IMG/VR virus record: IMGVR_UViG_3300043438_001628
Source of the DNA: an uncultured virus (IMG/VR IMGVR_UViG_3300043438_001628)
Taxonomy: Duplodnaviria; Heunggongvirae; Uroviricota; Caudoviricetes
Strand: one strand, 5' to 3'
DNA length: 20,000 bases
Part shown: positions 1,420 to 19,185 of the stretch, in pieces
Layout of the letters: every line of letters begins with the position of its first letter
How positions within the stretch are numbered: the first letter of the stretch is position 1
The notes under the pieces: model-generated
The model's input: only the letters and a program-made list of their open reading frames with translations
The model's database searches: none
What the model was told of the DNA's origin: nothing
Translations under genes and position numbers: made by a program

Positions 1420-1420
1420 T

Positions 1421-1426
1421 TAAATA
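1421..1426 (+). promoter_or_regulatory. Putative late-promoter core TAAATA
   Basis: 7 nt before ATG 1434, which supports 1434 over the TTG at 1416 as the start. Confidence 0.55.
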
Positions 1427-1433
1427 TTTGACA

Positions 1434-3248
1434 ATGAGCAATAAAGATACATTGGAGTATAATCTTCCACAAACAGCGTATGTTAATTTCGATGCTGTTT
1501 CTTTAAAAAATTTCATAATACAAAGATTAAACGAAAATTCAACATTCACTGATCAAAATTACGAAGGAAGTAATATATCATTCCTTATTGAAATTTTAGC
1601 GTATTACACGCATGTTTTAATGTTTTATTTGAATCAAAACAGTTCAGAATCTTTATTTGATCAATCTTCGATTTATGAAAACATGAATCGCATAGTTAAG
1701 CTTATTGGATATAAACCAACAGGTCAGCAAACATCAATAGTTCCAGTAAATTGTGTAGCGGCGGCTGATTTAGCTATCGGAAGCTATATGATTAGAAAAT
1801 ATAGTTATATTTTGGTTGATAGTATCCAATACACTGTATTAAATGATACAATTTTCGAAAAAACCACAAATTCTGAAGAAATAATACAATCCATCAATGA
1901 TAATTTGATATTGTATCAAGGAACTGTTGAAGAATACCCATCTTACATCGCTGAAGGTATCGGATTTGAAACTTTACCAGTGGTGGTGGATAATTTAGTG
2001 GATGCATCTACTTCTAAATTCATATCTGATGGTACATTGAGTGTCTATGTAAAGGAAACCAACAATAATACTTGGTATGAGTATAAGGAGATCGACACAT
2101 TATACCTATCCAAGCCAACTGATAGATTTTACGAAGTTCGCTTGAATGAAAGCGGAAATTATGAAATTAAATTTGGAAATGATACATTCGGAAAACAATT
2201 AGCCATCGGTGATGAGGTTAAAGTAATGTATATCCTGAGCGATGGAAATAAAGGAATCATAAGCAAAAATGCTATAAATGGGAATAAGCTGTTTACTTAT
2301 TTTACAAACACATTCAATCAAATATATGAAGATACAACAGCTTCAAATTCTCAAATCATAACAACCACACTGAGTTCTCTGTTGACATTTTCAAATCCTT
2401 TAAACTCTACCACTATAAGTGAAGCTGAAAGTGTGGAATCTATAAAAAACAATGCTCCTTATCTGATAGCAGCTCAATATAGATTAGTCACTGAAGAAGA
2501 TTACGAAAAATTCATTCTAAAAAGCCTCCCCAACATTCTAAACTCAGTTAAGGTGGTTGATAATGATAGATTTTTAGGAGAATATATCGACTATTACTAT
2601 AGAATATGTGTAGATCCCAATAAAGTCAACCGAGTTTTAATTAACCAAGTAAATTTTGCAGATTCTTGCGATTTTAACAATGTTAATATTTTCTGCGTTC
2701 CTAAATTTGATGTTCTTAGAGATGCAAGTTATCCCAATTATCTAAGTGAGTCATTTAAAAATCTTATAATAGATCTGACCAGAGGTAAAAAGATGATATC
2801 AAGTGAGATAGTCGCCAGAGATCCAATATATACAGCATTCGATGTCGGATTTAGTACATCATCAACAGCATTTTCGATTGTTTCAAACTCTAGAATAGTC
2901 GTTGTTCGAGATAAAAACAATAAAATTAATAAATCAACACTTAAAACTAAAGTGAATGATTTTATATTAGATTTTTTCAAGCCATCTAATAACACACTTG
3001 GACAAACTCTCAATTTATCAGATTTAACTGCTAATATCTTAGGAATTGATGGAATTTCATCAATTAGAACCGAAAACACATTAGAAAATACATTCTTCAA
3101 TGGATTATCATTCTTATCGTGGAATCCTGTATATGCAGACAGTGATAATGATCTTGTCAATCAGACAACTACATTACCATTTTATAAATTTCCATATTTT
3201 TATTCTCCTCAGTCTCTTATAAATAAAATAGAAATAATCGATGCCTGA
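1434..3248 (+). CDS. gp6: Baseplate wedge subunit, T4 gp6-like
   Basis: gp6 hallmarks: FTDQNYEGSNISFLIEILAYYTH, KLIGYKP, YEIKFGNDTFGK, YILSDGNKG, ESVESIKNNAP...QYRLVTEEDY. About 604 aa from ATG 1434. Confidence 0.9.
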   Translation: MSNKDTLEYNLPQTAYVNFDAVSLKNFIIQRLNENSTFTDQNYEGSNISFLIEILAYYTHVLMFYLNQNSSESLFDQSSIYENMNRIVKLIGYKPTGQQTSIVPVNCVAAADLAIGSYMIRKYSYILVDSIQYTVLNDTIFEKTTNSEEIIQSINDNLILYQGTVEEYPSYIAEGIGFETLPVVVDNLVDASTSKFISDGTLSVYVKETNNNTWYEYKEIDTLYLSKPTDRFYEVRLNESGNYEIKFGNDTFGKQLAIGDEVKVMYILSDGNKGIISKNAINGNKLFTYFTNTFNQIYEDTTASNSQIITTTLSSLLTFSNPLNSTTISEAESVESIKNNAPYLIAAQYRLVTEEDYEKFILKSLPNILNSVKVVDNDRFLGEYIDYYYRICVDPNKVNRVLINQVNFADSCDFNNVNIFCVPKFDVLRDASYPNYLSESFKNLIIDLTRGKKMISSEIVARDPIYTAFDVGFSTSSTAFSIVSNSRIVVVRDKNNKINKSTLKTKVNDFILDFFKPSNNTLGQTLNLSDLTANILGIDGISSIRTENTLENTFFNGLSFLSWNPVYADSDNDLVNQTTTLPFYKFPYFYSPQSLINKIEIIDA

Positions 3249-5367
3249 TTTAAAAACAACATACACAACATTCAATGTTTTAGATTATAAGAACGAACAA
3301 GTATTAAGTTCTTATAGTTTAGAACAAACACCATTTAAATTTGTTCCAGATTTGGATCTGTTTGCAAATAAGGATGTTGTGTGGTCATTTGGCGATGGAA
3401 CCATATCAAAATCGATAACTGCTACGAAATATTACACATTTCCGGGTGTGTATACTGTTAATTTATTAGTATATGATTGTCAAAACAATGCTTTGATATC
3501 TTCATACTCACAAAATGTTGAAATTAAAGATTATATCCCATACACTTTAAAGTTTACAAACCTATCTTCGAATAAAGGTTATGTAGAATTAAAAGAATCC
3601 GTTATACATGGACCTTGGGTTTTAAACGCCACTTATCCATGGCATCAGCCAATTACAGATATAGTATATGATGTATCTGGATCATCGAGTCTTAATTATT
3701 TCAGTGTGAATTCTAATAAGTTCACACATCTACAAAAGACATATTCCATATTTGATAGTACATATAATTACGCTATTGCGAATACTCAGTATTATGAAGT
3801 TCCTAAAATCACAATAAGTAATCCTGTTAAACTATATGCTAAAATATCTGGCAATTCTATAGTTTTATGCTCTGAAAACGATAACGGTTCCTTTTTTGTT
3901 GGAACATCAGCTGAGAAAGCGGTATATTATAAAGATGATTCAGTTGGAAATACAGCTATTTCTTTTAAATTCAACAGCGATTTCACCAACATAGATGGGA
4001 AAACTGTGAATTATGTGAATAATTTAGGAGTTATGTTGAGCGCTAACATAATCCAAAACAATGATGCATCAAGACTTACAATAACATCAAACGGGTTAGA
4101 TGGTGAGAAAACAGCAATCACTTCATTTGATATATATCACACTAAATTCACATCAAGCGAAATTCCATTCGTAGTTAAAATTAAAGATAGTCAATTTCAC
4201 TCTCTGAAAAATTTTAATCCAATTGAATTAAACAATCTCACAATATCAGTATTATCAGCAGAATATCTAACCACCGAATCTGGTGACATTCTATTAACAG
4301 AATCTAATATTCCAATCATAGCAGGTGCAACACCTATAAATTCAAGCTACTTCACAGTATCATCATTGAATTATACTATAGATGACATTGATCATAATGG
4401 ATCTTTTAGAGGTTATGTCAAATTTAATTCATTAAGTACAACACTAACTGATGTATTTTTATCATGTGGCGCTGTGTTGCAGAACAATTATCTATCATCA
4501 TTCAACTTAGCAACAGAATCCACTCTGTTTAATGTGTTGCCTAGAAATTTATATGACATATATAAAGTAAACGAAAACTTCAATGCGGCTGAGACACTTA
4601 ATAATCTAGCGTTTCAAGAGAGAATTAAAGATAATCCAGTATTGTTTAATGATTTCTTAGCTGCTATTTTTGGATCTGATGAATATGATCATGACTCTAT
4701 AGGGGTTAAAACATACGAAAAAATAGCAAACTTTATTCAAAACAATACAGACATAGACACTAAAAATATAAGAGCTTTAATTTCTGATATTAATTTAGTG
4801 GATAATGAAGAATTGGTTTTCAATAGAACACCGATAAAATATCCTGAAAATATCGAACGCATTGCTAACTTAGCATCTATAAGTTTAAACAAACTTGTAG
4901 GGACGACTAATAAATTTAAACAAAATTTCAACAGCCGTGGAGATACTCAAAAAGATAAGTACGGTAAAAATATAGGTAATCAAATTGATACATTGAATTA
5001 TGTCATAACCGCTGGAGCCCCCATAGCGGCTCTTGAAAAATTCAGCAACACATACACTCTACTGAACACATATCAGCCGCTGTGTGCCGGTTCTGGGTCT
5101 CAATTTACCCTGTCTGGATATAATAGTAATTGGGGTTGGCCATTGGTTCTTCCAACGCAATTCACTCCTCTCGATTTCGAAAAGTATTATATCTTTTTCG
5201 AATATATCGATGTGAATGATGGAACTATAATCGACAATGTTATTGATTTCACAAATCCGAACACAACAATATCGTCAGATTCTCCAACATCTGAATATTT
5301 CTTTGGAAATTCTGGAATATTTAATACTATGTTCTTGGATTCGCTCTATCAATCCTTGTCAATATGA
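3241..5367 (+). CDS. Putative baseplate protein with N-terminal PKD (Ig-like) domain, at the gp7 position (708 aa)
   Basis: WSFGDGT...ATKYYTFPGVYTVNLLV is a PKD signature. Overlaps the gp6 stop. The gp7-like role is inferred only from gene order. Confidence 0.7.
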   Translation: MPDLKTTYTTFNVLDYKNEQVLSSYSLEQTPFKFVPDLDLFANKDVVWSFGDGTISKSITATKYYTFPGVYTVNLLVYDCQNNALISSYSQNVEIKDYIPYTLKFTNLSSNKGYVELKESVIHGPWVLNATYPWHQPITDIVYDVSGSSSLNYFSVNSNKFTHLQKTYSIFDSTYNYAIANTQYYEVPKITISNPVKLYAKISGNSIVLCSENDNGSFFVGTSAEKAVYYKDDSVGNTAISFKFNSDFTNIDGKTVNYVNNLGVMLSANIIQNNDASRLTITSNGLDGEKTAITSFDIYHTKFTSSEIPFVVKIKDSQFHSLKNFNPIELNNLTISVLSAEYLTTESGDILLTESNIPIIAGATPINSSYFTVSSLNYTIDDIDHNGSFRGYVKFNSLSTTLTDVFLSCGAVLQNNYLSSFNLATESTLFNVLPRNLYDIYKVNENFNAAETLNNLAFQERIKDNPVLFNDFLAAIFGSDEYDHDSIGVKTYEKIANFIQNNTDIDTKNIRALISDINLVDNEELVFNRTPIKYPENIERIANLASISLNKLVGTTNKFKQNFNSRGDTQKDKYGKNIGNQIDTLNYVITAGAPIAALEKFSNTYTLLNTYQPLCAGSGSQFTLSGYNSNWGWPLVLPTQFTPLDFEKYYIFFEYIDVNDGTIIDNVIDFTNPNTTISSDSPTSEYFFGNSGIFNTMFLDSLYQSLSI

Positions 5368-5399: not shown

Positions 5400-8111
5400 A
5401 TGTCATCAATTCTGCAATACGGGTACCCTGAAATACCGAAGAGCGTAACAAATCCAAATGTATTAGAAGTAAATGCGTTGGATGTCGGTTCTCCGATGTC
5501 ATTTTTACTTTTCATTAAAACTATATCGGTAAGTTTCGAACCTGAAATATTACAAGCGTATTATAATGAATATATAAAGCGTTGGAATACTAAAAAGAAA
5601 AATAGCGACTCTGTAAATTCCAACATGATAATTGAGAAATATCGTGATTTTATACGCGATATCAATATTAAATACACAACTCTCGAAGAACGAGACTTCT
5701 TACAGAAGTTAAACTTCAATGATCGATACGATTTGGATACTGTATTGGGTTTCTATAGTAAGAAATTGCTGGAAATATCGCAATATTACAATACAAAAAG
5801 AGATGATGTAAAGTATGAGATAACTAGAAAGAAATTAAAAGGCAGCAATCTAGGTTTAGAGAAAACTGTTTTAGAAAAAACAATTGAATTTTTAGAAAAT
5901 CAAGAATATGGATTGATCGAATATGATATTGATGACATCAAATCCAAAATAAAAATCGATATTCAAGAACTATACAATTCATACGGATTATACTTCGATC
6001 AGAAACCAGATATCAAAATATATGACTACAAGGATTTAGATTTCGGGCAGGATATATTTTTAAGAAATGATGATGATCTAATCGCCAGTGTTTTCAGTGG
6101 AGTGTCTGATGAAATTAAAACTTTAAAAGAAGCAGATCAGTTATTTGAAAATAAGAGAAAATTAACTCGCAAGAGTGTGAGTAGTAATTTTTATTACATA
6201 TCAACTGGATCTACATCAACCGACTTCGTTTCCGGTAAATTATTCGATGCTACAAATTCATCTAAGAATATATTAAACAGAAACAATCCAACAACAGCGT
6301 CCACCATAAAGGGAGGTTTGTTAACAAAGGAAAATGTAGGTTTCTTCAAACCAAGTAAAACAGGGATTGTATTTATCGATGGTAAAAATGAATCATTTTC
6401 CATTAATATAGATGCATTACAGCCGAATTCATTGTATTATTTCCCAGATCCTAATATATTCGGAAGCAATGGTGAAATTTTAACATTTTTCGTCGATGGC
6501 GAGTATTTAAAACGAAATGCATCATCATCAGAAGCTGTAAATCAACCAATCTCAAATAAAAATGATACCAAGTATTATGGATATGCAACACTGAAAACGG
6601 ATGAATTTGATCAAAGCTTTGAATCAATATTCGATTCAGGATATATAGCGGATCAAAAGAGTGATGTATTTGGAAATAGATTTGGATTATTTAAACTTGA
6701 CGATTCTTTCAAATCCACAATTCAAGTCAAAACTCCAAACAATATAAAGAGTTTGCTGCTGAATGGTTATAAATTCTTTGATGATTTATATGGTGAGGGG
6801 TATAATTTTAATTATACTATAGCTGATAGTACATCATACACTGAAACATTAAGATCTGGTATATCTTCAAATACGAATTCATTTTCATCAACTGCCGGGG
6901 CTTGGAACTTGTTTTTTAGAAACTTCACGCCTTATCAAGAGTTGATAAGCCCAACTGAAAGTTCAATAACACCTTCATTTAAAATACGAGATGGTGCAAT
7001 CTTCATGAAGAATGATGTTGAGTTTTTAAGCGATCCAAGCAGTTCAGATCTCAACGCCTTTCCGGGAGCGAGTGTGTACTATTACAACACACTGTTTGAT
7101 GCTGGTATATACACCGCTTCTCCAATTCAGAGAGCGCTGAAAGACACATCATTTCCAGCAAATACTGCCAATTTCCTACAATCAGTTAGACCATTATCTG
7201 GCAACGATGTTTTGAATGTTGATGGAGGTAAATTCACCACAGAATTTGTATATAATTACACATTCGATGAAGTTGATTATGCTTATATCAACGATTCATC
7301 AAATGCGACATCATTTGTAATTGATGATATAACAGATAGCAATTATAATGATAGGTTAGATTTAAATGGTCAGATATTTGTAAAAAATATAAACTATAAT
7401 TCAACGAGGCCGCTCTTAACAGAATTTTCATACTTGAGTTCAAAGTATAATGGCAGCGTAGTTGCTCAATTATCAAGTATTTCAAAATTTGAAATAGCAT
7501 ATAACACGATATCTATCGAAACCGATAATTATTTGATATTTGAAAAAATAAGATATGAAAATTCAAAATTTATAAATCCAAAAACAGCAGCTTATGTTAT
7601 TGAGCATGACACAACTGATGTAAATAAACTATCAAACAGATTTAAAATAGGAACCGATATATATTATTGTGTATTAAACAGCACAACTCCTTTCATATCA
7701 TCAAATAATTACATAGTATATCCCGAAATATACAAATATGATACATTAACTGATGTAAATTTGAAAATTTTCCCTATAAATGAGACTGACTACACATCAA
7801 ACGAAGATTTTTTCAATGTATCTGGAAATAATGTAAGATTTGATAAAATTGAATCTCCAGTGTTGGTATATACTGACACCAACAAAATATTCAGCATTTC
7901 ATTCTTGGCAAAAGACCAAAATGAAATGATAGCACTTCACGAATATGATTTTATCATCAACCCCGATGTAACATTCTTAAAACATCATGTCTACATGGGC
8001 AGTTTCGATAGTTATTCGAACATAATGTCTTCATCATACAGTTCGTTATCAAACGTTTACTTACAATCAACACCAGCTGCGAATGTAATAAATCAAGAAT
8101 TTATCTTATGA
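5400..8111 (+). CDS. Large hypothetical virion/baseplate protein (903 aa)
   Basis: Long ORF within the baseplate module. The N-terminal ~250 aa look helical and the rest beta-rich. No family recognised. Confidence 0.7.
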   Translation: MSSILQYGYPEIPKSVTNPNVLEVNALDVGSPMSFLLFIKTISVSFEPEILQAYYNEYIKRWNTKKKNSDSVNSNMIIEKYRDFIRDINIKYTTLEERDFLQKLNFNDRYDLDTVLGFYSKKLLEISQYYNTKRDDVKYEITRKKLKGSNLGLEKTVLEKTIEFLENQEYGLIEYDIDDIKSKIKIDIQELYNSYGLYFDQKPDIKIYDYKDLDFGQDIFLRNDDDLIASVFSGVSDEIKTLKEADQLFENKRKLTRKSVSSNFYYISTGSTSTDFVSGKLFDATNSSKNILNRNNPTTASTIKGGLLTKENVGFFKPSKTGIVFIDGKNESFSINIDALQPNSLYYFPDPNIFGSNGEILTFFVDGEYLKRNASSSEAVNQPISNKNDTKYYGYATLKTDEFDQSFESIFDSGYIADQKSDVFGNRFGLFKLDDSFKSTIQVKTPNNIKSLLLNGYKFFDDLYGEGYNFNYTIADSTSYTETLRSGISSNTNSFSSTAGAWNLFFRNFTPYQELISPTESSITPSFKIRDGAIFMKNDVEFLSDPSSSDLNAFPGASVYYYNTLFDAGIYTASPIQRALKDTSFPANTANFLQSVRPLSGNDVLNVDGGKFTTEFVYNYTFDEVDYAYINDSSNATSFVIDDITDSNYNDRLDLNGQIFVKNINYNSTRPLLTEFSYLSSKYNGSVVAQLSSISKFEIAYNTISIETDNYLIFEKIRYENSKFINPKTAAYVIEHDTTDVNKLSNRFKIGTDIYYCVLNSTTPFISSNNYIVYPEIYKYDTLTDVNLKIFPINETDYTSNEDFFNVSGNNVRFDKIESPVLVYTDTNKIFSISFLAKDQNEMIALHEYDFIINPDVTFLKHHVYMGSFDSYSNIMSSSYSSLSNVYLQSTPAANVINQEFIL

Positions 8112-8626: not shown

Positions 8627-10843
8627 ATGGAAACTGTTATTAAATCATTATCATCGTTGACTTCTAAAATATGGAAGTCAAACATGGATAACACATCGTA
8701 TAAACAGGTTAAGCGAACTTACCAAGACGGGTTCTCTTTTAATTTTCCATTCGCTTTATCGGGATTCAACGATTTTAAAACGAAAGAATACTCCAACTTA
8801 TATCTAACCACAAATATGCAGGCGTCTTGGTTCATGGATTTAGATGATTCAACTATATCTGCTCCAAAATTGATGACATACTTACAAAGTGGGTCGTTGT
8901 ATTTATCTAGACCAAATCCTTCAAGCACAACATTCGACAGCTTTGCCATCAAATTCGACGAAGAACTAAGTGACAACACATATTTTGATATTGAATTTCA
9001 CATACCTAATTTATGCACAGTTTCATTCGTGGATTCTGGCAAGAAATACTTTTTAGCAAATGATGCAGGCTCTTTGAAATTTATTTGGGATGTTCATTTA
9101 CCAACAGCGATAAACGCAGCCAATCCGCAGTATTTTAAGTGTGTTTATAACGACAAAAAAGAGTTATATCTGATTAAAGACATAAATGGGAATAATAACT
9201 TAGTTAAAAAGACTGATGATACATTAACTTTCGTCGAACTGAGTGCAGGTAATAAAACTCTAATACTGAACAACTACTTCAAAGTATCTAGAAATAATGA
9301 GTATATCTTAAACAGAACACCCAACAGCTCTTTTATAACATATTTAAATAATTCAAATGATATAGATTATTCTAAAAGTGTTTTTGATCTTAATAATAAC
9401 TTTTTAATACATTCTCCATATTCATCTGAATACAAAGATGTAATAGTTCTCAAAAATCAACTGAGCGTGAATGAAACATTCACAAACGCTCAGAATTTAC
9501 TATCATCCGGTTATGATATCGCAGTTGATAATTTCAGAAACTATACCAGTATAACATCCCCAATAGATTCTGAAAATTCTTCTGAAATCAATTTAAATTA
9601 TGTGTTTTATAACAAACCTTATGTTATAAGACAGGGAATTACAGAATTTGATGCTCCATCCAGCATGTATCCATTTTCAAATTTGAATATTAATGATAGT
9701 AGGTTCATCGACGCTGGAGCATACGCATTCGATACTCCTCTATATGCAGACAAAGTGTTTCAATTAAACACAAATAACTATGCAAATGACGGAAAAACAT
9801 ACTTATGCACTTGGTTATCTGGATCAAACTCCAATAAAGTATGGGTTGATAGATATTATTACCCGGATTTAATATCAAAACGAGCAGCACTTTCACAAAA
9901 ATGCGTATTCGATATAACTTACGAGCAAGCTATTGAAAAACTAATAGCCACTAACAGTTCATTGAGTTCAACAATCGCAAAAACTGCAATTTTTGATAAA
10001 AGAAGCGATTTAAGCTTTAAACCTAATCAAAAATACACATATCACAGATTTGACAACAGTGCAATATTCGAAACTATATCAGCAACTAATACAGTAGCGT
10101 GTGGTGTGAATATAGTGCCTTACAATTATCAATCACTGATCAACGATTCTGGTAAAGTAACCATATCGTTTTATTTCAAAGGAGACGATCCTGAATGGAC
10201 AATCCAAAGTCTTCGAAATAACATAGACGCAGGTGTTAAAATCACAAAAACATTCGATCAACTATATTTTGAATATAAATTATTCGACAATTCAAATAAT
10301 CAAACCTTGATTTTCTCCACAACTACATCATATAAAAAATATAAAGACAACTTTATATGCTTCAGCTATGATGCATTGACAGGAATTGGATTCTTTTTCT
10401 TAAACAATCAAAAAATTCTGGATATAAACACGGTAATCGGTCAATTTTCAAATAAAACTCTATTATATGGAAAGTTGTATTATAATGACCAAGATATTTT
10501 CACAGTGAATGCTATAACTTCTGATATTTTCATATCTGATGAAAAAATAGATGAAAATTTAGCATTCATATTGCCTTTTATTCAAAATAGACAGACTGTT
10601 GATGATATAACAATAACGCTTCCTTGTGGAATGCGTAATTCAATTGATGATATCACATACCTACAAATGATATGCAACAACAACACGAATAAGAGTAATT
10701 TTATAAATATTTCGATTGATAATATAGGAATAAGCAATCCTGATACTTTAAAAGATCTAGAATCTACTATGTTGGATAAACTTAAACGCCATATCCCAGC
10801 AACTTCCACTATAAATAAAATAAAATTCACAAACTATATATGA
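8627..10843 (+). CDS. Large hypothetical virion protein with possible LamG/concanavalin-A-like domain (738 aa)
   Basis: The segment VTISFYFK...NFICFSYDALTGIGFFFLNNQKI resembles the LamG pattern FTISxWxK...HxxxxYDxxxGxxxxYxNG. Baseplate context. Confidence 0.65.
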   Translation: METVIKSLSSLTSKIWKSNMDNTSYKQVKRTYQDGFSFNFPFALSGFNDFKTKEYSNLYLTTNMQASWFMDLDDSTISAPKLMTYLQSGSLYLSRPNPSSTTFDSFAIKFDEELSDNTYFDIEFHIPNLCTVSFVDSGKKYFLANDAGSLKFIWDVHLPTAINAANPQYFKCVYNDKKELYLIKDINGNNNLVKKTDDTLTFVELSAGNKTLILNNYFKVSRNNEYILNRTPNSSFITYLNNSNDIDYSKSVFDLNNNFLIHSPYSSEYKDVIVLKNQLSVNETFTNAQNLLSSGYDIAVDNFRNYTSITSPIDSENSSEINLNYVFYNKPYVIRQGITEFDAPSSMYPFSNLNINDSRFIDAGAYAFDTPLYADKVFQLNTNNYANDGKTYLCTWLSGSNSNKVWVDRYYYPDLISKRAALSQKCVFDITYEQAIEKLIATNSSLSSTIAKTAIFDKRSDLSFKPNQKYTYHRFDNSAIFETISATNTVACGVNIVPYNYQSLINDSGKVTISFYFKGDDPEWTIQSLRNNIDAGVKITKTFDQLYFEYKLFDNSNNQTLIFSTTTSYKKYKDNFICFSYDALTGIGFFFLNNQKILDINTVIGQFSNKTLLYGKLYYNDQDIFTVNAITSDIFISDEKIDENLAFILPFIQNRQTVDDITITLPCGMRNSIDDITYLQMICNNNTNKSNFINISIDNIGISNPDTLKDLESTMLDKLKRHIPATSTINKIKFTNYI

Positions 10844-12549
10844 TTTCTTATTTCAAATACGATAATGGAAATGCATTCACCATCGACGGAGTGCCATATT
10901 CTGGATATTTCCATGTTTTGAATGGATCTGCATTCTCTGGAAAGAAACCGCTGGGCGATTCTCGTCAATTATCAGCTAATGGTAATTTTTTAAGTGATTT
11001 ATTCATAAGTAAAGCGGTTTTTGATGGCGTTACGCCGAGTATCGATTTAGCTATACCGAATGCGCTGGATATTTTAAACGATAACACATTAACTGAATTA
11101 TTAACTAGAGTTGATGATAATAATTTAAAAATATACCAAAATAGTATATTTATAAATCCAAATAACCTACCATACGACTATAAAAATACATATTTTTACA
11201 CATTAACATCAACGGAAGCTGATATCAGAACTCCTGATGATTTAATGTATGGTAAAAATGTATATACCCACAGTGATCCATTCAGTTATTCCGAAGAATG
11301 GGCATTTTTGGATAGAGTCACCACTGGATCTTTTATAGTTGATAAAGATGATAATTTCATATATTATTGCGTAGCAGATAACATTACATATACTTTAAGC
11401 GGAACTTTCAACGATCCATCTAAAAAATTAGCAGTGATATCACAATCACCTATAACAGATAATCTAAAAATAGAACAAGATTATGACACTAATGAGTTAT
11501 TCTTTTATAAAGAAGATTCATTATCAATATACGACTTATCAAAATATGAAGATTGCAATAATCTATTCTTAAAAGATCAAATATCACTTTCAGCGACTTC
11601 AGAAACCATACCATACTATGCAATGGGATATAATAAACGAAGCGAATATGTGAATGATGTCATTTATATAAAAAATAAATATTCCAACGAGATATTTTTA
11701 ACACTGCCGCTGTATCAACTCAACTTGGATCAATTAATAGGGATAGATATAAGAAAAGAGGATGACAATATCATCATCGTCGGTAAAAAAGACGAAAAGA
11801 CTTACTTTATATTTTTTGATAGTGATAATTACACCGAAACTTTCAGATATGAGGAATTATTATATTCTGAAAATACCACTGCTATTAAATTTTCGGATGA
11901 AGATTCGGATTTCTTCTACTTGATAAAGTCTATAGATAAAATAGACGCATCCGCTGAAGAAAGACCGGATACTGAAATTCGATCATTGCTGAATATCAAC
12001 AATCGATTGTCTAAAACTAGATCATCTAACTTTTTCTATATAAGTGACTATCTTTTCAATACAACTGAAGAAAAAATTAACACTATTCAAATAAAATTCA
12101 ATTCAAATCGAATGAAATCGAATAGTTATAACAACTTGACATATACAACACTGCAAAAGAACGGTTATTTGTATTTCATTATGCATAATATAGGGCGTTT
12201 ATATGTTTCAAAAACTAAAACTTCACTATATCAAAATTTTGTACCTCTAAATTTAGATAAAAAATTCGAGAAATTCAATTGTAATTACAGCAGTTTAGGA
12301 TTATCTTTTAATTCCGCAATTCTAAACTTAATCAGAGATACTTTAAACATAGCAACCGCTGTTGAAAAGGTTAAAACATCAATGGGCGATCTAGCTAATC
12401 CTCTAGATTCGCTCATTCCAACTCCCGAATTACAATTTCAGCTAGAAAATCTATTTTTAAACGGAAACGAAACTATTAATGTTGTTTCTTTACAGCGAAT
12501 ATTCACTATCATAAATGATCTACAAAAGAAATTAGTGCATTTATCTTGA
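10840..12549 (+). CDS. Hypothetical virion protein (569 aa), beta-rich centre and helical C-terminus
   Basis: ATGA overlap with the upstream gene and structural-module context. No family recognised with confidence. Confidence 0.65.
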   Translation: MISYFKYDNGNAFTIDGVPYSGYFHVLNGSAFSGKKPLGDSRQLSANGNFLSDLFISKAVFDGVTPSIDLAIPNALDILNDNTLTELLTRVDDNNLKIYQNSIFINPNNLPYDYKNTYFYTLTSTEADIRTPDDLMYGKNVYTHSDPFSYSEEWAFLDRVTTGSFIVDKDDNFIYYCVADNITYTLSGTFNDPSKKLAVISQSPITDNLKIEQDYDTNELFFYKEDSLSIYDLSKYEDCNNLFLKDQISLSATSETIPYYAMGYNKRSEYVNDVIYIKNKYSNEIFLTLPLYQLNLDQLIGIDIRKEDDNIIIVGKKDEKTYFIFFDSDNYTETFRYEELLYSENTTAIKFSDEDSDFFYLIKSIDKIDASAEERPDTEIRSLLNINNRLSKTRSSNFFYISDYLFNTTEEKINTIQIKFNSNRMKSNSYNNLTYTTLQKNGYLYFIMHNIGRLYVSKTKTSLYQNFVPLNLDKKFEKFNCNYSSLGLSFNSAILNLIRDTLNIATAVEKVKTSMGDLANPLDSLIPTPELQFQLENLFLNGNETINVVSLQRIFTIINDLQKKLVHLS

Positions 12550-12578: not shown

Positions 12579-13256
12579 ATGAAATCATTTACTGATCAGT
12601 TTATATCTGATTTATATGGATCTATGTTACATGTTGAAACTCCATCATTGACAGGGGTTGATGTAGTGTATGATGGACTCGGCAATGCATCGTCCTTATC
12701 AGTGGGATTATCAGGAGAAGGCGCTAGAATAACAGGAGCGCTGACAAGTGGCAATGTAGTGTATCCTACTTACCCATCTTTGATTAATTTCATTGATTAC
12801 ATTTATCCAATCGGCTCTTGTTTGCTATCTCTAGACAACGCAAACCCATCAATTAGATTATTAGGCACAGTTTGGACGCAAGTCGGTCAAGGTCGTGTAA
12901 TCACTGGCGTAGGAACTGGAACAGACAGCAACGGTGTGGCAAGAACTGTGACATCTGGAAACAATAGCGGCGGTCTTTATCAACAAACACTTTCAGCATC
13001 CAATATACCTGACCACTTTCACTATATAGCAAATACCGTTTCAGATCACAGCACCGATAAAGATTTACTGACTCCTGATAATTATATGGCTCTTGGCGGT
13101 CGGGCAGCAGCAAGCAATTATGCATATGAATTAGAGGGAAACTCTCTAATCCCCACAGTAGGCAAAACATCTGGATTAATCGGAGCAAATCAAACATCAC
13201 CAGTCACAACAACAAACCCAACATACGGAGTGTATATTTGGACTAGAATTTCATAA
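12579..13256 (+). CDS. Baseplate/tail protein with T4 gp10 C-terminal-like domain (225 aa)
   Basis: YIYPIGS...ANPSIRLLGTVWTQVGQGRVITGVG...TLSASNIPDHFH...NPTYGVYIWTRIS matches the YPIGS / W...G.GRV..G / HxH / P...VY.W.R pattern of that domain. Confidence 0.8.
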   Translation: MKSFTDQFISDLYGSMLHVETPSLTGVDVVYDGLGNASSLSVGLSGEGARITGALTSGNVVYPTYPSLINFIDYIYPIGSCLLSLDNANPSIRLLGTVWTQVGQGRVITGVGTGTDSNGVARTVTSGNNSGGLYQQTLSASNIPDHFHYIANTVSDHSTDKDLLTPDNYMALGGRAAASNYAYELEGNSLIPTVGKTSGLIGANQTSPVTTTNPTYGVYIWTRIS

Positions 13257-13258
13257 TT

Positions 13259-14317
13259 ATGGCAGACATCTCAATTATAAAACTTAAAGTTAGACGAGGA
13301 ACCGATTCCCAGCGTCAAAGAATAATATTAGATCAGGGTGAATTAGGATTCACCACTGATACACAACGACTTTTCATCGGAAATGGCAGTTTATCAGGTG
13401 GAGTGGTCGCTGGTAATATCACACATCCATTTTCAGAAACTTCAGGAAGTCGAATTAATTTAAGCAATGCCGTTCGAGGTGATATTGTAAATGAAAATGG
13501 ATTTTTATATCAGCTATCTGGTGCAAACTACAATCAATTATCAGCGTGGGTATTTATAGGATCTAAACCCGACAATTCATCCATTGAGTATAATGACAAT
13601 AGAGAACTCCAGATTAAAAACAACGGAATAGGAGCTACTAAATTTGCAGCAAACGCCGCATACAACATGGGTGGATTGGTAGCCACTCCAACAAATGGAT
13701 TGTCTGCGAATGTGGATGGAATTACATTAACTGTAACTTCAACTAATCAGTTATCAGTATTTAGAATCACCCAAAATCAAATACAATCATCAGCACTTGG
13801 AGATGGATTAACTGGTGGAAGTGGATCTCCGTTAAAATTAAATATCGGAACTGGATTAGGATTCAGCAGCGGTGTTCTTACATTAACAGGAGCATCTACG
13901 AATTCAGTAGGCGCAAGTGCTATAAGCCAAGACGCAATCGGGTCTGGTTTGTCATTGAGTGCTGGTAAATTAATTGCTGATATCAGAACAGTCAACATAT
14001 CAGCATTTTCATTGAATTCTGGTCAATTAAACTTGTTAGCTAGAACTGCTGCATCGCCTAAATTTGCAAATATCTCATACAACGATAATGGTATTATCAC
14101 TGGATATACATCAACAATAACACAAACATTCACAGGAGCTGAATCTACATCATCCCCGCTGTCGGTGTTCAATGGTCATATATCTCAAACCGTATATACC
14201 AATCAGAGCATTTTTAATGTTCTTTCGGGGACATCCGCAATATCATTATCATCAGCTGGATTTGCGGTTATAGATACAGCACTTGGCCAATTCGCTATCC
14301 CGATGTTTAAATTCTAA
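13259..14317 (+). CDS. Tail fibre protein 1 with Mtd-N/hyaluronidase-N-type anchor domain (352 aa)
   Basis: KLKVRRGT...LDQGELGFTTDTQRLFIGNG N-terminus, followed by a Gly/Ser-rich shaft with GDGL/GTGL/GSGL repeats. Confidence 0.8.
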   Translation: MADISIIKLKVRRGTDSQRQRIILDQGELGFTTDTQRLFIGNGSLSGGVVAGNITHPFSETSGSRINLSNAVRGDIVNENGFLYQLSGANYNQLSAWVFIGSKPDNSSIEYNDNRELQIKNNGIGATKFAANAAYNMGGLVATPTNGLSANVDGITLTVTSTNQLSVFRITQNQIQSSALGDGLTGGSGSPLKLNIGTGLGFSSGVLTLTGASTNSVGASAISQDAIGSGLSLSAGKLIADIRTVNISAFSLNSGQLNLLARTAASPKFANISYNDNGIITGYTSTITQTFTGAESTSSPLSVFNGHISQTVYTNQSIFNVLSGTSAISLSSAGFAVIDTALGQFAIPMFKF

Positions 14318-14330: not shown

Positions 14331-15851
14331 ATGTCAAATTCAATTGAAATTTTCCAAAACACTCTATTAAAGCTTATCGTGAGACAGGGGGAAGACTCTG
14401 ATCGGAAGCTAATTTTATTAGATACCGGCGAATTGGGTTATGCTACTGATACAAAGCGACTTTTTATAGGAGATGGAGAAACCACGGGCGGAAACGCTGT
14501 TGGAAATAAATATCTAGGAGATGGTGTTCCGACTTCAGTTGGTTCAGCTGCTCAAATTGGTGATTTAGTGTTTGATCCAACTGCTAAAATACTGTATAAA
14601 TTCAATGGTGGTGTATATGACAATCCAGCTAATTGGCTAGCTGTGGGAGCGATATACAGCGCGGGAGAATCATTACAATTCCAAAGCTCAAACAACACCA
14701 TATCATTGAGCAGCAGCATTTCGGTGGATAGAGTAACGCAGCGTAGCAGTGCATATCTAAATTTACCGGAAAAAACATCATTAAATTCCGTAAACTACAA
14801 TTGGCCAATCGGCGGATTGCAAAATAATCTATTCTTAGGAACTGACGCCTTCGGAAATTTAAGCTGGAAGACTCCACTACCACTGAACACCTATTATGTA
14901 GCTAATTCAGCTAGTAGAATTCCAGTGGGTATGATCACGCCATTCGTATCCGGGGGAGATATACCGTATGGATGGTTGTTGTGCAATGGTCAGCCTGTTC
15001 TCGGAGCAACATATCCAGTATTGTCAGCAGCTATAGGAACCAGATACGGTGGCAGCGGTGGATCTTTTAATTTGCCCGACTTCACAAACAGAACACTGTA
15101 TGGTGTTGTTACTGATCCAGCAACATCAACAACTTTCCGTTTAGCGAGTGGTACCACTATTGGATTAAGTGCGGTTGGAACTAATTTTATCATCAAAGCA
15201 ATTCCTGATAATATCGTTACATCAACTATTACAGTACTAAGTTCGTTATCCGCCACTGTTGGCGGAATCAACATAACAGGCACAGCAGTGACTACACTGA
15301 CTGGAAATATTGAAATTGGGTTAGCTCCTATTATATCACCTGTAGAAATCCAAACACCGTTTAATATTGATCAATATGGTCGTGTAAGTTCAGTTCCTGT
15401 GACAAATGCTGGAATAATTGCTGGGACTGTAATTAATCCTTCAAGTTACATAAAATTTCTAACAACACCAATTAAAGTAATAGATATAACAGACAATTTC
15501 ACATTTAAAGATAATATAACAGTATTCCCGATTATTCCCGGAATACCTGCAAATGCAAAAACTGTAATCTTGGATTCTTATATCTCAAATACCAACAACG
15601 ATCAATATGTTATTGTTTGTGCATCTTATGATAAATCAAATTTACATTCGATTACAGGCGATGATGTTGTAGGAACCGCAGAATACTTAGTGAGCAGAAT
15701 TAGATCAGCTGATTATGGAGCTGGCGTTGTCGCAAATCAATGCATGATACCTCTCAGTTCAAATGGTGTGACATCATCTTTCGGACTAAGAGTAGCTGCT
15801 GAAAATGTATGGGATAATGGCTTCGTTCGTGTAATTGGATACACCCTATAA
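14331..15851 (+). CDS. Tail fibre protein 2 with Mtd-N-type anchor and phage tail-collar domain (506 aa)
   Basis: N-terminus KLIVRQGE...LDTGELGYATDTKRLFIGDG. Collar motif IPVGMITPF...IPYGWLLCNGQ...YPVLSAAIGTRYGG...FNLPDF...NFIIKA. Confidence 0.88.
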   Translation: MSNSIEIFQNTLLKLIVRQGEDSDRKLILLDTGELGYATDTKRLFIGDGETTGGNAVGNKYLGDGVPTSVGSAAQIGDLVFDPTAKILYKFNGGVYDNPANWLAVGAIYSAGESLQFQSSNNTISLSSSISVDRVTQRSSAYLNLPEKTSLNSVNYNWPIGGLQNNLFLGTDAFGNLSWKTPLPLNTYYVANSASRIPVGMITPFVSGGDIPYGWLLCNGQPVLGATYPVLSAAIGTRYGGSGGSFNLPDFTNRTLYGVVTDPATSTTFRLASGTTIGLSAVGTNFIIKAIPDNIVTSTITVLSSLSATVGGINITGTAVTTLTGNIEIGLAPIISPVEIQTPFNIDQYGRVSSVPVTNAGIIAGTVINPSSYIKFLTTPIKVIDITDNFTFKDNITVFPIIPGIPANAKTVILDSYISNTNNDQYVIVCASYDKSNLHSITGDDVVGTAEYLVSRIRSADYGAGVVANQCMIPLSSNGVTSSFGLRVAAENVWDNGFVRVIGYTL

Positions 15852-15857
15852 TGAAAT

Positions 15858-16529
15858 ATGAGCTTCCCATCCGATGTCAGATTACCAAGTAATGCAAAAT
15901 ATGTAGCATTCGTCGATGATAAAAAAGAGTTTAATCCAAATTATGATATTATTTGGAGCTTTCAATATGCTATAACGGGAACAGAAGCTGGATTTTCCAC
16001 CTTTTTAACCTCGAAAACTCCAGATTTAACGGCTATTCCGGGTCATTACCTTGGATACAGTGGAAATATGCAAACTGGCGGTATATGCATAGCATTTGAT
16101 ACAACTGGATTGTTTGCGTTATCTTCCAGTACTAGAAAAGGAGTCGGATTAAATAGCATAAAGAGAAACAGCATCATTATCAGAGATAATAATGACAATA
16201 TCACACTGTATGAATCTTTATCAAATTTAAATTCGACATTTTTTATAACAGCGTCGTCTAAATCATATAAAACTATGAGATTTAGATACACAAACACTAA
16301 TAAAATTGGAATAGACTTTAAATTAGATAACAGCAGTGCGTATACTGAACTAACTTCGATAACTTTAGAGTCTAATCCTGAAAATTTAAGTGATTTAGTT
16401 CCGGGATTTGCATTTTCATCTCCCGTTTCGTCTTTGAATACTCCGGGAGGTTTATTTTTGAAAAATTTCCACACACAAGGAACTGATTCAACTGAGACTG
16501 TAGAAATTTTACCGTTTACTAGAATTTAA
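15858..16529 (+). CDS. Legume (L-type) lectin/ConA-like fold protein (223 aa)
   Basis: WSFQYAI...AGFSTFL...GHYLGYSG...ICIAFDT...PGFAFSS parallels the L-lectin pattern F.F.I...DGfaF.L...LGY...vAvEFDT...vGFsasT. Confidence 0.6.
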   Translation: MSFPSDVRLPSNAKYVAFVDDKKEFNPNYDIIWSFQYAITGTEAGFSTFLTSKTPDLTAIPGHYLGYSGNMQTGGICIAFDTTGLFALSSSTRKGVGLNSIKRNSIIIRDNNDNITLYESLSNLNSTFFITASSKSYKTMRFRYTNTNKIGIDFKLDNSSAYTELTSITLESNPENLSDLVPGFAFSSPVSSLNTPGGLFLKNFHTQGTDSTETVEILPFTRI

Positions 16530-16531
16530 TT

Positions 16532-16954
16532 ATGGCTGATGAAAGTAGCACAAGTTCAACTACGGAAACGAGTTCGAGTACTAGTAGTACATCAAGCAGC
16601 ACTAGTACATCAAGCAGTACTAGTACATCAACTAGCACAACAGCTGGACCAAATCCACCAATTCCAGTATCTACAACATGTTATCCATGTTTAAGTTGCC
16701 CTGATTTGATCATAGAAACACCTCCGACGCCTATATCATTAACAACTAAATCTCCATCAGGTAATAATACACTCCCACCAATCGTTAAAGTCGTAGTGCC
16801 AGTATCATTCCCGCTTTCGAACCCGGACAATATAGCATCCACAACGGAGACAACAGCCACGACAACACAGACAACACAGACTCCGACTACGGAAACTTCG
16901 TCTAGTTCAATACAACCATGCAAAGATAAAAAGTGTAATATATTAGGATATTAA
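16532..16954 (+). CDS. Mucin-like Ser/Thr/Pro-rich protein A (140 aa)
   Basis: N-terminal S/T tract, CYPCLSC motif, LPPIVKVVVP, second Thr tract, C-terminal CKDKKCNILGY. Third codon positions vary within the S/T tracts. No signal peptide or TM segment evident. Confidence 0.8.
   Translation: MADESSTSSTTETSSSTSSTSSSTSTSSSTSTSTSTTAGPNPPIPVSTTCYPCLSCPDLIIETPPTPISLTTKSPSGNNTLPPIVKVVVPVSFPLSNPDNIASTTETTATTTQTTQTPTTETSSSSIQPCKDKKCNILGY
16585..16631 (+). repeat. 18-bp tandem repeat (TAGTACATCAAGCAGYAC, about 2.6 copies) encoding STSSST
   Basis: Copies at 16585-16602, 16603-16620 and a partial copy at 16621-16631. Confidence 0.85.
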
Positions 16955-16972
16955 AATATCAAAATTTACAGT

Positions 16973-17608
16973 ATGATCAATATATCCCCATTATCAGGAA
17001 CTGATCCTTTGATTGTTAATATAATAGTGTCTCCAGAAACTGGAAACTATTACAATATATACATATTTGACGATTTCGGTGGGGCAATCTATACTCAACT
17101 AGTGTCTTATGTTGAATTATCACACACATTTAATGTTTCACTAATTCCCGGAAACAATTATATATATTGGGAATACAGAAGAATAAGCGATGATTCGTAT
17201 ATAGATACAGCAGATGTTTTCATAACCGTATCGGAATCAACCACAACAACTCCGACTCCAACCTCCACCAGCACATCTACTAGTACATCTACTAGTACAT
17301 CGACAACATCTCCCCCCACTACACCGAGTCCGACAACAGTCCAGCCGAAAATACCATGTTGCCCTCCAAGAGTGCGATACATTTTTCCACCCCCCGTTGA
17401 GAATACTACAAAAAAACCAATTGAATTACCTCCCATCACCAAAGTAGTAATCCCAAGCGCTCAAACCCTCACAGACCCATCCACAATCAGTTCGACTACT
17501 ATAGCACCAACTACGACTCCAACTACAACTAATCAACCCGCTACAACACAGCCGCCAGCTAATACTACATCATGTATTAATACACATTGCAAAAAATTAA
17601 ATTTTTGA
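16973..17608 (+). CDS. Mucin-like Ser/Thr/Pro-rich protein B with N-terminal beta-rich (possibly Ig-like) domain (211 aa)
   Basis: About 87 aa globular N-terminus, then TTTTPTPTSTSTSTS..., PCCPP, LPPITKVVIP, a Thr/Pro tract and C-terminal CINTHCKKLNF. Paralogous to protein A. Confidence 0.8.
   Translation: MINISPLSGTDPLIVNIIVSPETGNYYNIYIFDDFGGAIYTQLVSYVELSHTFNVSLIPGNNYIYWEYRRISDDSYIDTADVFITVSESTTTTPTPTSTSTSTSTSTSTSTTSPPTTPSPTTVQPKIPCCPPRVRYIFPPPVENTTKKPIELPPITKVVIPSAQTLTDPSTISSTTIAPTTTPTTTNQPATTQPPANTTSCINTHCKKLNF
17267..17302 (+). repeat. 12-bp tandem repeat (ACTAGTACATCT, about 3 copies) encoding TSTS
   Basis: ACCAGCACATCT-ACTAGTACATCT-ACTAGTACATCG. Confidence 0.85.
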
Positions 17609-17614
17609 TAAATT

Positions 17615-18445
17615 ATGTCAATGAGAAAACTGACAATTGGGATGGCTGTTCACGATGATATCGACGGATTGTATTTTACAATACAGGCGATAAGAATGTT
17701 TCACAAAGAAGTACTCAATGATATTGAATTTGTAGTAGTTGACAATAATCCATCTGGAAATCACTCCAAGTGTATACGAGACTTTATCGATTGGGTGCAG
17801 GAGCCAATTCAGTATCTACCATTCACCAATTTTAAATCTACTTCTATCAGAAATAAAATTTTTGAATTAGCTGATACTCCGTATGTTATGAGTATCGATA
17901 GCCATGTTCTCATCGAACCCGGTGCAATTAAAAAATTAATTAAATTTTATGACAACAACAAAGATGATGGAAATTTACTACAAGGACCGCTTGTATATGA
18001 TGATCTTAGATCGGTATCTACCCATTTTGATCTTGTGTGGCAATCAAATATGTGGGGGGTGTGGGGTAACGATAAACGCGGTGAAGATCCTGATGGACCA
18101 CCTTTTGAAATACCCGCTCAAGGCTTGGGTTTATTCTCTTGTCGCAAAGATGCGTGGTTAGGATTCAACAAAAACTTTAGAGGATTCGGAGGTGAAGAGG
18201 GCTATATCCATAAAAAATACGAAAAACATGGTAAAAAGACACTATGTTTGCCATTTTTAAGATGGAATCACCGTTTTTACAGACCCGCTGGCGTGAGTTA
18301 CCCAAATGAATTGCCGCAAAGAGTTAAAAATTATTTGATCGGATTCCATGAATTGGGGTTAGACACGACAGAACTTAAGAATCACTTCAAAGATTCTGTT
18401 GGATCTTCTAAAATAGAAGAACTTGAAAGAGAATTACTCAACTAA
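17615..18445 (+). CDS. GT-A fold glycosyltransferase (GT2-like) with polypeptide GalNAc/GlcNAc-transferase-type motifs
   Basis: LTIGMAVHDD, IEFVVVDNN, RN, YVMSIDSH (D95-x-H97), GLGLFS, FGGEE (191-195), WNHRF (H219). The start could instead be ATG 17621. Confidence 0.9.
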   Translation: MSMRKLTIGMAVHDDIDGLYFTIQAIRMFHKEVLNDIEFVVVDNNPSGNHSKCIRDFIDWVQEPIQYLPFTNFKSTSIRNKIFELADTPYVMSIDSHVLIEPGAIKKLIKFYDNNKDDGNLLQGPLVYDDLRSVSTHFDLVWQSNMWGVWGNDKRGEDPDGPPFEIPAQGLGLFSCRKDAWLGFNKNFRGFGGEEGYIHKKYEKHGKKTLCLPFLRWNHRFYRPAGVSYPNELPQRVKNYLIGFHELGLDTTELKNHFKDSVGSSKIEELERELLN

Positions 18446-18687: not shown

Positions 18688-19185
18688 TTACTCTAACGTT
18701 TTATTATCGCCCATGCTCTGAACTTTATTAATACTGTCGAATATTTGAGCGCTGTTCAATTCTTCAGTGAGAAGAAGCGAATCGTAGCTGACCATGACCT
18801 TGTATGAAGAATTACAAGATTGACATTTGCATACATTTTCAGCATTTGGAATTAAAATACCCTCAAACAATACCTTTCCACAATTACAGGGCAATTCAAC
18901 CACTTGTTCACTCAACATAGATTCATATTCAGCGATTACCTCTTCTTGTTCTGCGATTTTCTCAAACATATTGAGAATCTCAGTTTCATCAGCCGTGTGT
19001 TGCTTATCTTGAACAGATTCTAAGTGCGGTTTTATCAAAATAAAATACGAACCCAATATAATTGCTATCGCAGATAGCAAACATAGTGTATTTGTAAATG
19101 GGACAAAAGGTGATAGCCCATATGCGATTAGGGGATTAGTCAATGCCGCACACCCAAGTAGTTTGTAACCAATATCAATCTTCAT
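18688..19185 (-). CDS. Membrane-anchored protein with C-terminal Cys cluster (putative zinc ribbon), 165 aa
   Basis: Hydrophobic N-terminal ~50 aa (1-2 TM segments), acidic helical linker, then LPCNCG...CKCQSC. Confidence 0.7.
   Translation of the reverse strand: MKIDIGYKLLGCAALTNPLIAYGLSPFVPFTNTLCLLSAIAIILGSYFILIKPHLESVQDKQHTADETEILNMFEKIAEQEEVIAEYESMLSEQVVELPCNCGKVLFEGILIPNAENVCKCQSCNSSYKVMVSYDSLLLTEELNSAQIFDSINKVQSMGDNKTLE

Follow-up and report, generated by a model that had tools for sequence, protein, structure and literature searches.

A four-gene cassette closes a baseplate and tail-fiber block

A 20,000-nucleotide (nt) stretch of DNA from an uncultured virus (IMG/VR record IMGVR_UViG_3300043438_001628; here called the window) carries the baseplate and tail-fiber block of an uncultured T4-like myophage, with a G+C content of 30 to 40%. 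The block closes with a cassette of four co-oriented genes encoding a protein with an L-type lectin fold, two mucin-like proteins (A and B) rich in serine, threonine, and proline (S/T/P), and a soluble glycosyltransferase (GT) whose predicted fold resembles that of family GT27 enzymes (Table 1). The cassette starts 6 nt after the gene for fiber protein 2 (end at 15851), and its internal gaps are 2, 18, and 6 nt. An initial annotation made from the sequence alone had placed four contiguous, co-oriented open reading frames (ORFs) directly after the tail-fiber genes, and its coordinates and gaps were exact.

Two observations assign the window to an uncultured lineage. The gp6 protein is only 23 to 27% identical to those of the best-covered cultured T4-like phages among the matches listed, and a tblastn search with the GT and the lectin-fold protein against 50,697 cultured-phage records returned no match. 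Complete relatives are 195 to 212 kb in length, with direct terminal repeats in two of three. Counts of promoters and terminators were at the level of shuffled sequence (34 versus 32.8 and 4 versus 4.1, respectively), and the T4 late-promoter word TATAAATA was not enriched (6 versus 4.3), with none between 15000 and 19000. Because these scans were uninformative, gene spacing is the only indication that the cassette is cotranscribed with the fiber genes. Read by eye, with no predictor used, three N termini lack a charged n-region with a hydrophobic core, in agreement with the earlier claim that signal peptides are absent.

Table 1. Features of the cassette and of the flanking baseplate and fiber genes (positions in the window; aa, amino acids)
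Feature	Position	Strand	Basis
L-type-lectin-fold protein, 223 aa	15858..16529	+	AlphaFold2 model and fold comparison
Mucin-like protein A, 140 aa	16532..16954	+	Composition; paralogy with B; C-terminal motif family
Protein A, S/T tract	aa 5-37		Almost pure S/T/P
Protein A, Cys-flanked C-terminal module	aa ~50-140		End is CKDKKCNILGY
Mucin-like protein B, 211 aa	16973-17608	+	Composition; paralogy with A
Protein B, N-terminal globular head, aa 1-88, diversifying	16973..17236	+	Divergence from the L011 copy
Protein B, S/T/P tract, aa 89-124, proposed O-glycosylation acceptor	17237..17344	+	Almost pure S/T/P
Protein B, conserved C-terminal module, CC-PP...PPPV...LTDPSTI...poly-T...C-x4-C-KKLNF	17345..17608	+	78% identity to L011
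Soluble GT-A glycosyltransferase (GT), 276 aa, GT27-like fold	17615..18445	+	PF00535, model, Foldseek, VIA-align
GT, D95-S-H97, DxH metal-binding-type motif	17897..17905	+	D95 and H97 invariant in 24 sequences
GT, F191-G-G-E-E195, GGE motif	18185..18199	+	Invariant in 24 sequences
GT, H219 in W-x-H-R-F, candidate third metal ligand	18269..18271	+	Invariant
gp25	934-1419		Pfam and PHROGs
gp6	1416-3248		Pfam and PHROGs
Baseplate protein with Gp10_C domain	12579..13256	+	Pfam PF21939, E = 6.5e-15; PHROG tail protein
Fiber protein 1, Mtd_N N terminus	13259..14317	+	Pfam PF18454, E = 1.3e-10
Fiber protein 2, Mtd_N and phage tail Collar	14331..15851	+	PF07484, E = 1.9e-14; PF18454, E = 1e-6; 11 PHROG tail-fiber/collar families

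The glycosyltransferase resembles polypeptide transferases in predicted fold

The cassette GT matches Pfam family PF00535 (Glycos_transf_2; E = 1.1e-9, 38.9 bits against a gathering cutoff of 23.3) and belongs to a large family of 2,713 clusters at 90% identity (E <= 1e-3; proteins of 151 to 483 aa). Across 24 homologs sharing 52 to 99% identity, D43-N44, D95-x-H97, G190-F-G-G-E-E195, H199, and W217-x-H219-R-F are invariant. Enzymes of family GT27 use a DxH motif and a distal His as Mn2+ ligands and carry a (W)GGE "Gal/GalNAc-T" motif. When residues 1 to 276 are aligned linearly to 113 to 397, D95-x-H97, GGEE192-195, and H219 of the phage enzyme fall roughly where the GT27 residues would lie, and by this linear offset alone H219 may correspond to the GT27 C-terminal His.

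When an AlphaFold2 model of the GT (predicted local distance difference test score [pLDDT] of 87.5, predicted TM score of 0.88) was compared to the PDB with Foldseek, all matches listed were polypeptide N-acetylgalactosaminyltransferases (ppGalNAc-Ts), the best being 6nqt_E (E = 3.3e-13, TMq 0.73). VIA-align, run against 48,161 representatives, ranked mouse GalNAc-T1 first (8v9q_A, Z 22.2, 259 of 276 aa, root mean square deviation [rmsd] of 3.3) and Toxoplasma GalNAc-T3 second (8uhv_A, Z 21.3). A fold search of BFVD found one close protein from an uncultured phage, A0A6J7WYC1 (30% identity, TMq 0.87); the remaining matches were generic GT-A enzymes. The likeness to GT27 is real and spans the whole protein. 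The initial annotation had described a GT-A enzyme, similar to polypeptide N-acetylhexosamine (HexNAc) transferases, with DxH, FGGE, and His motifs; the motifs are invariant in the 24 homologs, and ppGalNAc-Ts are the best structural matches by both methods.

Proteins A and B belong to a family with variable heads and a conserved C-terminal module

The candidate acceptors of this enzyme stand out in composition. Serine plus threonine make up 46% of protein A and 32% of protein B (with 12% and 13% proline, respectively), compared to 9 to 24% in the 12 other window proteins counted. Outside the low-complexity tracts, A and B align with 42% identity over 52 aa (BLASTP E = 5e-5), and their cysteines, five in A and four in B, flank a central module, all of which fits the earlier description of two paralogous, S/T/P-rich, Cys-flanked proteins. 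A 12-nt tandem repeat lies at 17273-17301, within the S/T/P tract of B. In locus L011, whose GT is 98% identical to that of the window, protein B is only 46% identical in the head, compared to 64% in the S/T tract and 78% in the C-terminal module. Such a pattern is typical of host- or environment-facing proteins; in this family the conserved end, presumably the anchor, is the C-terminal one.

The length of the protein encoded immediately upstream of the GT ranges from ~100 to 2058 aa in related loci, and BLAST searches with A and B of the window recovered these upstream genes in the closest relatives only. The feature that the upstream proteins share is a C-terminal module of ~90 to 100 aa, composed in order of an S/T tract, a CC or CxxC element with a Pro-rich segment, a short conserved stretch ending in (N/D)P(L/S), a poly-Thr run, and a terminus that reads C-x(n)-C-x-x-L-x-F/Y at its extreme end. 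The regular expression C..C..L.[FY]-COOH matched 96 of 3750 ORFs of at least 50 aa. The 87 copies listed by position are all on the plus strand and upstream of the GT, at 1 to 3 per locus, and the remaining 9 sit in duplicate copies of the same contigs. The possibility that S/T-rich ORFs are noncoding repeat artifacts was rejected, as 62 distinct C-terminal tails carry the same nonrepetitive module and terminal motif.

Heads preceding this module range from none in A and ~88 aa in B to ~1900 aa elsewhere, and one family member has a tailspike-like beta-helix head (phrog_2234, E = 7e-6). Searches of the long mucin-like relatives with Pfam and PHROGs found nothing beyond one weak beta-helix/tailspike match. 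Neither A nor B matched a structural-protein family in Pfam or PHROGs, B matching only a PHROG of unknown function (E = 0.0056), and the best ESM Atlas score for B was 0.77, below the level of a lead. A, B, and their relatives form one family, built from a variable head, one or two S/T/P stalk tracts, and a conserved C-terminal module.

Linkage of GT homologs to S/T-rich genes in phages

To quantify the linkage, the best 80 of 435 IMG/VR relatives of the GT were combined with the window, seven duplicate contig fetches were removed, and the GTs were collapsed at 95% identity into 50 clusters, of which 48 had more than 400 nt of upstream sequence. ORFs were scored as S/T-rich if some 30-aa segment contained at least 60% serine plus threonine, and as adjacent if they ended at most 120 nt upstream on the same strand. 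An S/T-rich ORF was found directly upstream of the GT in 34 of the 48 nonredundant loci, with five further adjacent ORFs below the cutoff (scores of 0.47 to 0.57), and within 5 kb in 45. Among background genes at least four positions away, only 9 of 784 were S/T-rich, and the cassette arrangement is thus not due to chance.

A second set, anchored on the lectin-fold gene, comprised the best 80 of 131 relatives; it was not deduplicated and partly overlaps the GT-anchored contigs. Among its 58 loci with at least 5 kb of downstream sequence, the next gene was S/T-rich in 38, a mucin-type terminus was encoded downstream in 48, and a GT was in view in 42. The initial annotation had named a general lack of linkage between GT homologs and S/T-rich genes as the finding that would speak against its proposal; the linkage is instead strong in phages and recurs in bacteria.

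Recurrence in divergent phages and in bacteria

Because most of the phage loci belong to one lineage, independent cases carry more weight. One is L009:1475-7281, on a 194.5-kb phage contig, where the GT homolog is 52% identical to that of the window. The gene order there is an 808-aa protein whose tail of ~250 aa is almost pure S/T, a GT2::FkbM-methyltransferase fusion, a Sulfotransfer_2 enzyme, and the GT homolog fused to an F5/8-type-C carbohydrate-binding domain, which looks like a candidate pathway for a methylated or sulfated mucin-like glycan. In L060:350-9914, eight co-oriented genes come after that of a 738-aa S/T-rich protein; they include those for a TylF-like methyltransferase, a GT8, the GT homolog, a GT1, and a GT9. 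In L065, a sulfotransferase and a GT2 lie between or beside the S/T-rich gene and the GT. In L056:5952-7007 and L066:5926-7008, a radical-SAM/SPASM enzyme gene overlaps the start of the GT homolog, with S/T-rich proteins encoded on both sides, an arrangement that hints at further peptide modification.

Bacterial homologs were examined as the best 79 loci of 436 relatives from 185,579 species genomes. These GTs are 49 to 71% identical to that of the window (78 of 79 at 49 to 55%), and most lie within multidomain proteins of 400 to 1300 aa. Among nine of these fusions that were examined, PqqD peptide-recognition domains were found in two and an HprK-related kinase domain in one, and the others contain GT25, Stealth/LicD/cytidylyltransferase, epimerase, or sulfotransferase-like parts. 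An S/T-rich ORF was adjacent to the bacterial GT in 16 of the 79 loci and within 3 kb in 34, compared to none of 366 background ORFs (at least 100 aa, more than 3 kb away). Seven of 10 such neighbors inspected are small proteins with a signal-like N terminus, a W-x-x-P-V-V...P-A-H-A element, and a poly-Thr tail. Small poly-Thr ORFs of this kind occur in L097, L101, L108, L111, L138, L158, and L165. Here, peptide recognition and Thr-rich polypeptides accompany this catalytic family in another architecture, which provides the strongest argument for a polypeptide acceptor.

The lectin-fold protein is a frequent but dispensable neighbor

An AlphaFold2 model of the first cassette protein, built from 23 homologs (pLDDT 86.3), matched almost exclusively legume/L-type lectins, VIP36, and ERGIC-53 among the Foldseek matches listed (best 2pel_A, E = 5.7e-7). 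The 10 best VIA-align matches all have the L-lectin fold (Z 14.7 to 12.4), with galectins next at Z of about 11 to 12. The best was 7exo_A (Z 14.7, 169 aa, rmsd 3.0), and the top 10 include the Methanocaldococcus jannaschii legume-lectin domain (14.7), YwfG (14.3), peanut lectin (13.8), ERGIC-53 (13.6), and the SraP lectin module 4m00_A (13.4). Three phage chains, 8zdo_a, 9n6a_A, and 5ly8_A, are also among the structural matches. No sequence model in Pfam, PHROG, or NCBIfam matched the protein, and its earlier designation as L-lectin-like is thus borne out by fold, without sequence-model support. In the 23-sequence alignment, F-D-[TS]-T-G is invariant, a motif that we take to resemble the sugar-binding Asp strand of lectins, and no Asn column is invariant or nearly so.

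The lectin-fold family has 251 representatives at E <= 1e-3. In P0131, P0125, and P0247, P/T/S tracts and large repeated domains come after the lectin-fold domain; P0247 also carries an additional domain at its N terminus and, at the other end, a very long C terminus rich in (T/S)P. Such fusion to P/T/S tracts within one polypeptide suggests that the role of the lectin is structural, within an appendage, more than auxiliary to the enzyme. The lectin is also not obligatory, since in a group of loci with GT and mucin-like genes, a 155-aa Mtd_N fiber gene replaces it in the same position. We think it most probable that this frequent but dispensable protein contributes structure or adhesion to the same appendage. 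Complex prediction with the lectin-fold protein and a 100-aa C-terminal module returned a score of 0.00 twice, without control runs, and is uninformative on binding.

A model for cytoplasmic O-glycosylation, and its alternatives

Gene identities, folds, the conserved module, and gene linkage were established in silico; from these we infer a transfer reaction, a sugar, a virion location, and functional roles. We consider it reasonably probable that the GT O-glycosylates the S/T tracts of the fiber-module proteins A, B, and their relatives in the host cytoplasm. In this scheme, the soluble enzyme would act late in infection, using a host nucleotide sugar (HexNAc would be only an analogy), and would attach this sugar to the Ser/Thr tracts of the products of the immediately upstream genes. 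The Cys-flanked C-terminal module could be an anchor to the baseplate/fiber complex, a docking or recognition element for the GT, or both. Once glycosylated, the tracts would become an extended, stiffened, protease-resistant stalk on which the diversifying head is displayed. A structural or adhesive contribution is proposed for the lectin-fold protein, any particular lectin role being far less certain than the core proposal.

Several observations weigh against O-glycosylation of A and B by the GT. GT-A folds are generic, and the margin of GT27 is modest, at ~3 Z units: the structures ranked next by VIA-align were WrtF (18.7), K4CP (18.6), RmlT (18.4), TarS (17.8), and SpsA (17.4). Pfam assigns the GT only to the broad PF00535; phmmer and a 24-sequence profile run against all PDB chains found no GT27 chain, only TarS at E = 0.1, and at the sequence level the GT is not a GT27 member. 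It has no ricin-type lectin domain, ending at residue 276 with no further Pfam domain. Stretches rich in S/T/P can be plain flexible linkers. Because most phage loci represent one lineage, the synteny is partly inherited and does not amount to 48 independent events, and 45 of the 79 bacterial loci have no S/T-rich ORF within 3 kb. Finally, in L067:1277-7368 and L069:993-7068, the GT homolog lies between DNA polymerase B and UvsX-like/DnaB-like helicase genes, with no S/T-rich ORF within 5 kb.

Some of these same points favor an alternative in which the GT acts on another acceptor, either a host envelope glycan or another virion protein (the fibers or the lectin-fold protein), while A and B are unglycosylated, disordered linker fibers whose adjacency to the GT reflects only a shared hypervariable fiber module. 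Pfam and NCBIfam see only a generic GT2, the structural neighbors at Z of 17 to 19 include polysaccharide and teichoic-acid enzymes, and L067 and L069 have a GT with no S/T-rich neighbor. In addition, complete relatives contain 2 to 7 GT2-type matches, which implies glycan work beyond that of the cassette GT. We nevertheless regard another acceptor as unlikely, since the GT is again paired with S/T-rich genes in bacteria and in L009-type phages, where the gene architectures are quite different, PqqD peptide-recognition domains occur on bacterial homologs, and the best structural matches of the GT are polypeptide transferases. The GT also has no membrane segment of the kind that would suit lipid-linked acceptors, as judged by eye with no predictor used.

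A different possibility is that A and B are glycosylated but are not part of the virion, being soluble glycopeptides (decoys or matrix) that are released at lysis or stay intracellular, by analogy with the secreted poly-Thr peptides that adjoin the bacterial homologs. The small, signal-bearing bacterial neighbors, the lack of any head domain in A, and the failure of A and B to match a structural-protein family would all fit such a role. However, the genes end a baseplate/fiber block with gaps of 2 to 18 nt, some relatives are 600 to 2058 aa long, one with a tailspike-like head, the strictly conserved extreme C terminus suits a docking element, and by eye A and B have no signal peptide. A soluble product is therefore considered quite improbable.

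The lectin-fold protein could also be the lectin domain of the GT in trans. The ricin-type domain of GT27 enzymes reads the first sugars and makes dense glycosylation processive, and a separate lectin could do the same here; the initial annotation had suggested the lectin as a possible reader, processivity factor, or docking site. The lectin gene is co-conserved with the mucin-like and GT genes, and the fusion of the L009 GT to a carbohydrate-binding F5/8-type-C domain makes a lectin function beside the GT plausible. Against such a role, many loci with GT and mucin-like genes lack the lectin and have the 155-aa Mtd_N fiber instead, in other proteins the lectin domain, in N-terminal position, has P/T/S tracts and large extra domains as its fusion partners and not a GT, and ConA-like domains are common in phage receptor-binding proteins, three phage chains being among the structural matches. 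There is thus only a slim chance that it serves the enzyme in this way.

That the GT glycosylates phage DNA bases to evade restriction is extremely improbable, even with the L067 and L069 homologs among replication genes, because the gene lies in or next to the fiber module beside S/T-rich genes in 45 of 48 loci, peptide-recognition domains occur in the bacterial relatives, and the DNA glucosyltransferases of T4 have a different fold, GT-B. DNA modification is a role often assigned to phage glycosyltransferases (PMC12619734 and PMC12801897), which is the other point in its favor.

Beyond O-glycosylation of A and B, a bolder proposal can be formulated, which we put forward tentatively and consider doubtful as a whole. 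Enzymes of the large, uncharacterized DxH GT-A family of phages and prokaryotes may truly O-glycosylate polypeptides, as a prokaryotic equivalent, and perhaps a relative, of GT27, and T4-like phages of ~200 kb may build C-module-anchored, glycosylated mucin stalks with hypervariable heads on the baseplate, a "mucin brush" that would tune adhesion or host range.

Relation to known glycosylation systems

Mucin-type O-glycosylation by GT27 enzymes is the closest parallel in catalytic domain, with its GT-A domain giving the best structural match along all 276 aa, DxH, GGE, and a C-terminal His, a set resembling that of GT27, conserved in the phage GT, dense S/T/P tracts in the putative acceptors, and, in the relative L009, a catalytic domain coupled to a C-terminal carbohydrate-binding domain. 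Unlike GT27 enzymes, the phage GT is half the size, has no ricin-B domain, membrane anchor, or detectable sequence membership, and would act in the bacterial cytoplasm. Unlike mucins, the phage acceptors would be small dedicated proteins with a conserved Cys-flanked module.

Serine-rich repeat adhesins of Gram-positive bacteria, such as SraP, GspB, and Fap1, offer a second parallel. In these systems, GtfA/B O-glycosylates serine-rich stalks in the cytoplasm, and the stalks display a binding head; the initiating enzymes are a GT-B pair, followed by accessory Sec export and cell-wall anchoring. The L-lectin module of SraP is among the structural matches of the cassette lectin-fold protein (4m00_A, Z 13.4). 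In contrast, the only GT of the cassette has a GT-A fold, the phage proteins have an N-terminal head and a conserved C-terminal anchor, and a scan of 18 window ORFs with Pfam and PHROGs revealed no Sec-like gene.

The uncharacterized bacterial fusions of PqqD-RRE, HprK-related kinase, and GT domains contain true homologs of the phage GT in the same S/T-tract neighborhood; an RRE-kinase precedent among RiPPs has reportedly been described (PMC13381572). They differ in being multidomain proteins with leader-recognition and kinase parts, and their substrates have signal-like leaders, whereas the phage GT stands alone and its proposed substrates carry a C-terminal Cys module.

To our knowledge, protein glycosylation of phage particles is experimentally known from very few systems, chiefly mycobacteriophages, whose virion glycosylation was reportedly described by Freeman et al. 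in 2023. Glycans are reported on the C termini of capsid and tail-tube subunits in mycobacteriophages (PMC12619734). As proposed here, phage-encoded GTs in that system modify the phage's own structural proteins; unlike the acceptors there, the candidate acceptors in the window are separate mucin-like genes ending a T4-like fiber module. A search of full-text literature found no description of the cassette, with most subscription journals outside its scope and absence therefore not proven.

If the GT does glycosylate proteins A and B and their relatives, a mucin-type-like O-glycosylation with dedicated acceptors would be common in large uncultured aquatic T4-like phages, on a scale indicated by the 435 IMG/VR stretches and more than 2,700 protein clusters. 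Its products would constitute a new modular class of phage appendage, in which a conserved anchor carries a glycosylated stalk with a variable head. Small soluble enzymes that glycosylate S/T tracts in the bacterial cytoplasm would be useful for glyco-engineering, and the origin of mucin-type glycosylation enzymes would become testable.

Other genes in the window and in complete relatives

Three large ORFs in the window (5400-8111, 8627-10843, and 10840-12549) had no significant family match. Downstream of the GT, a convergent 165-aa gene (18688-19185, minus strand) encodes hydrophobic N-terminal segments and two CxxC-type pairs; it is present at this position in most related phage loci and had no significant family match, the best being GFA (E = 0.0026, below the cutoff). 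In the complete 202-kb relative G002, the record of L038, six further GT2-type genes lie at ~84.5 to 89.7 kb, far from the fiber module. Within the baseplate region of the window, the gene at 3241-5367 encodes a 708-aa protein with a PKD domain (PF18911, E = 2e-7).

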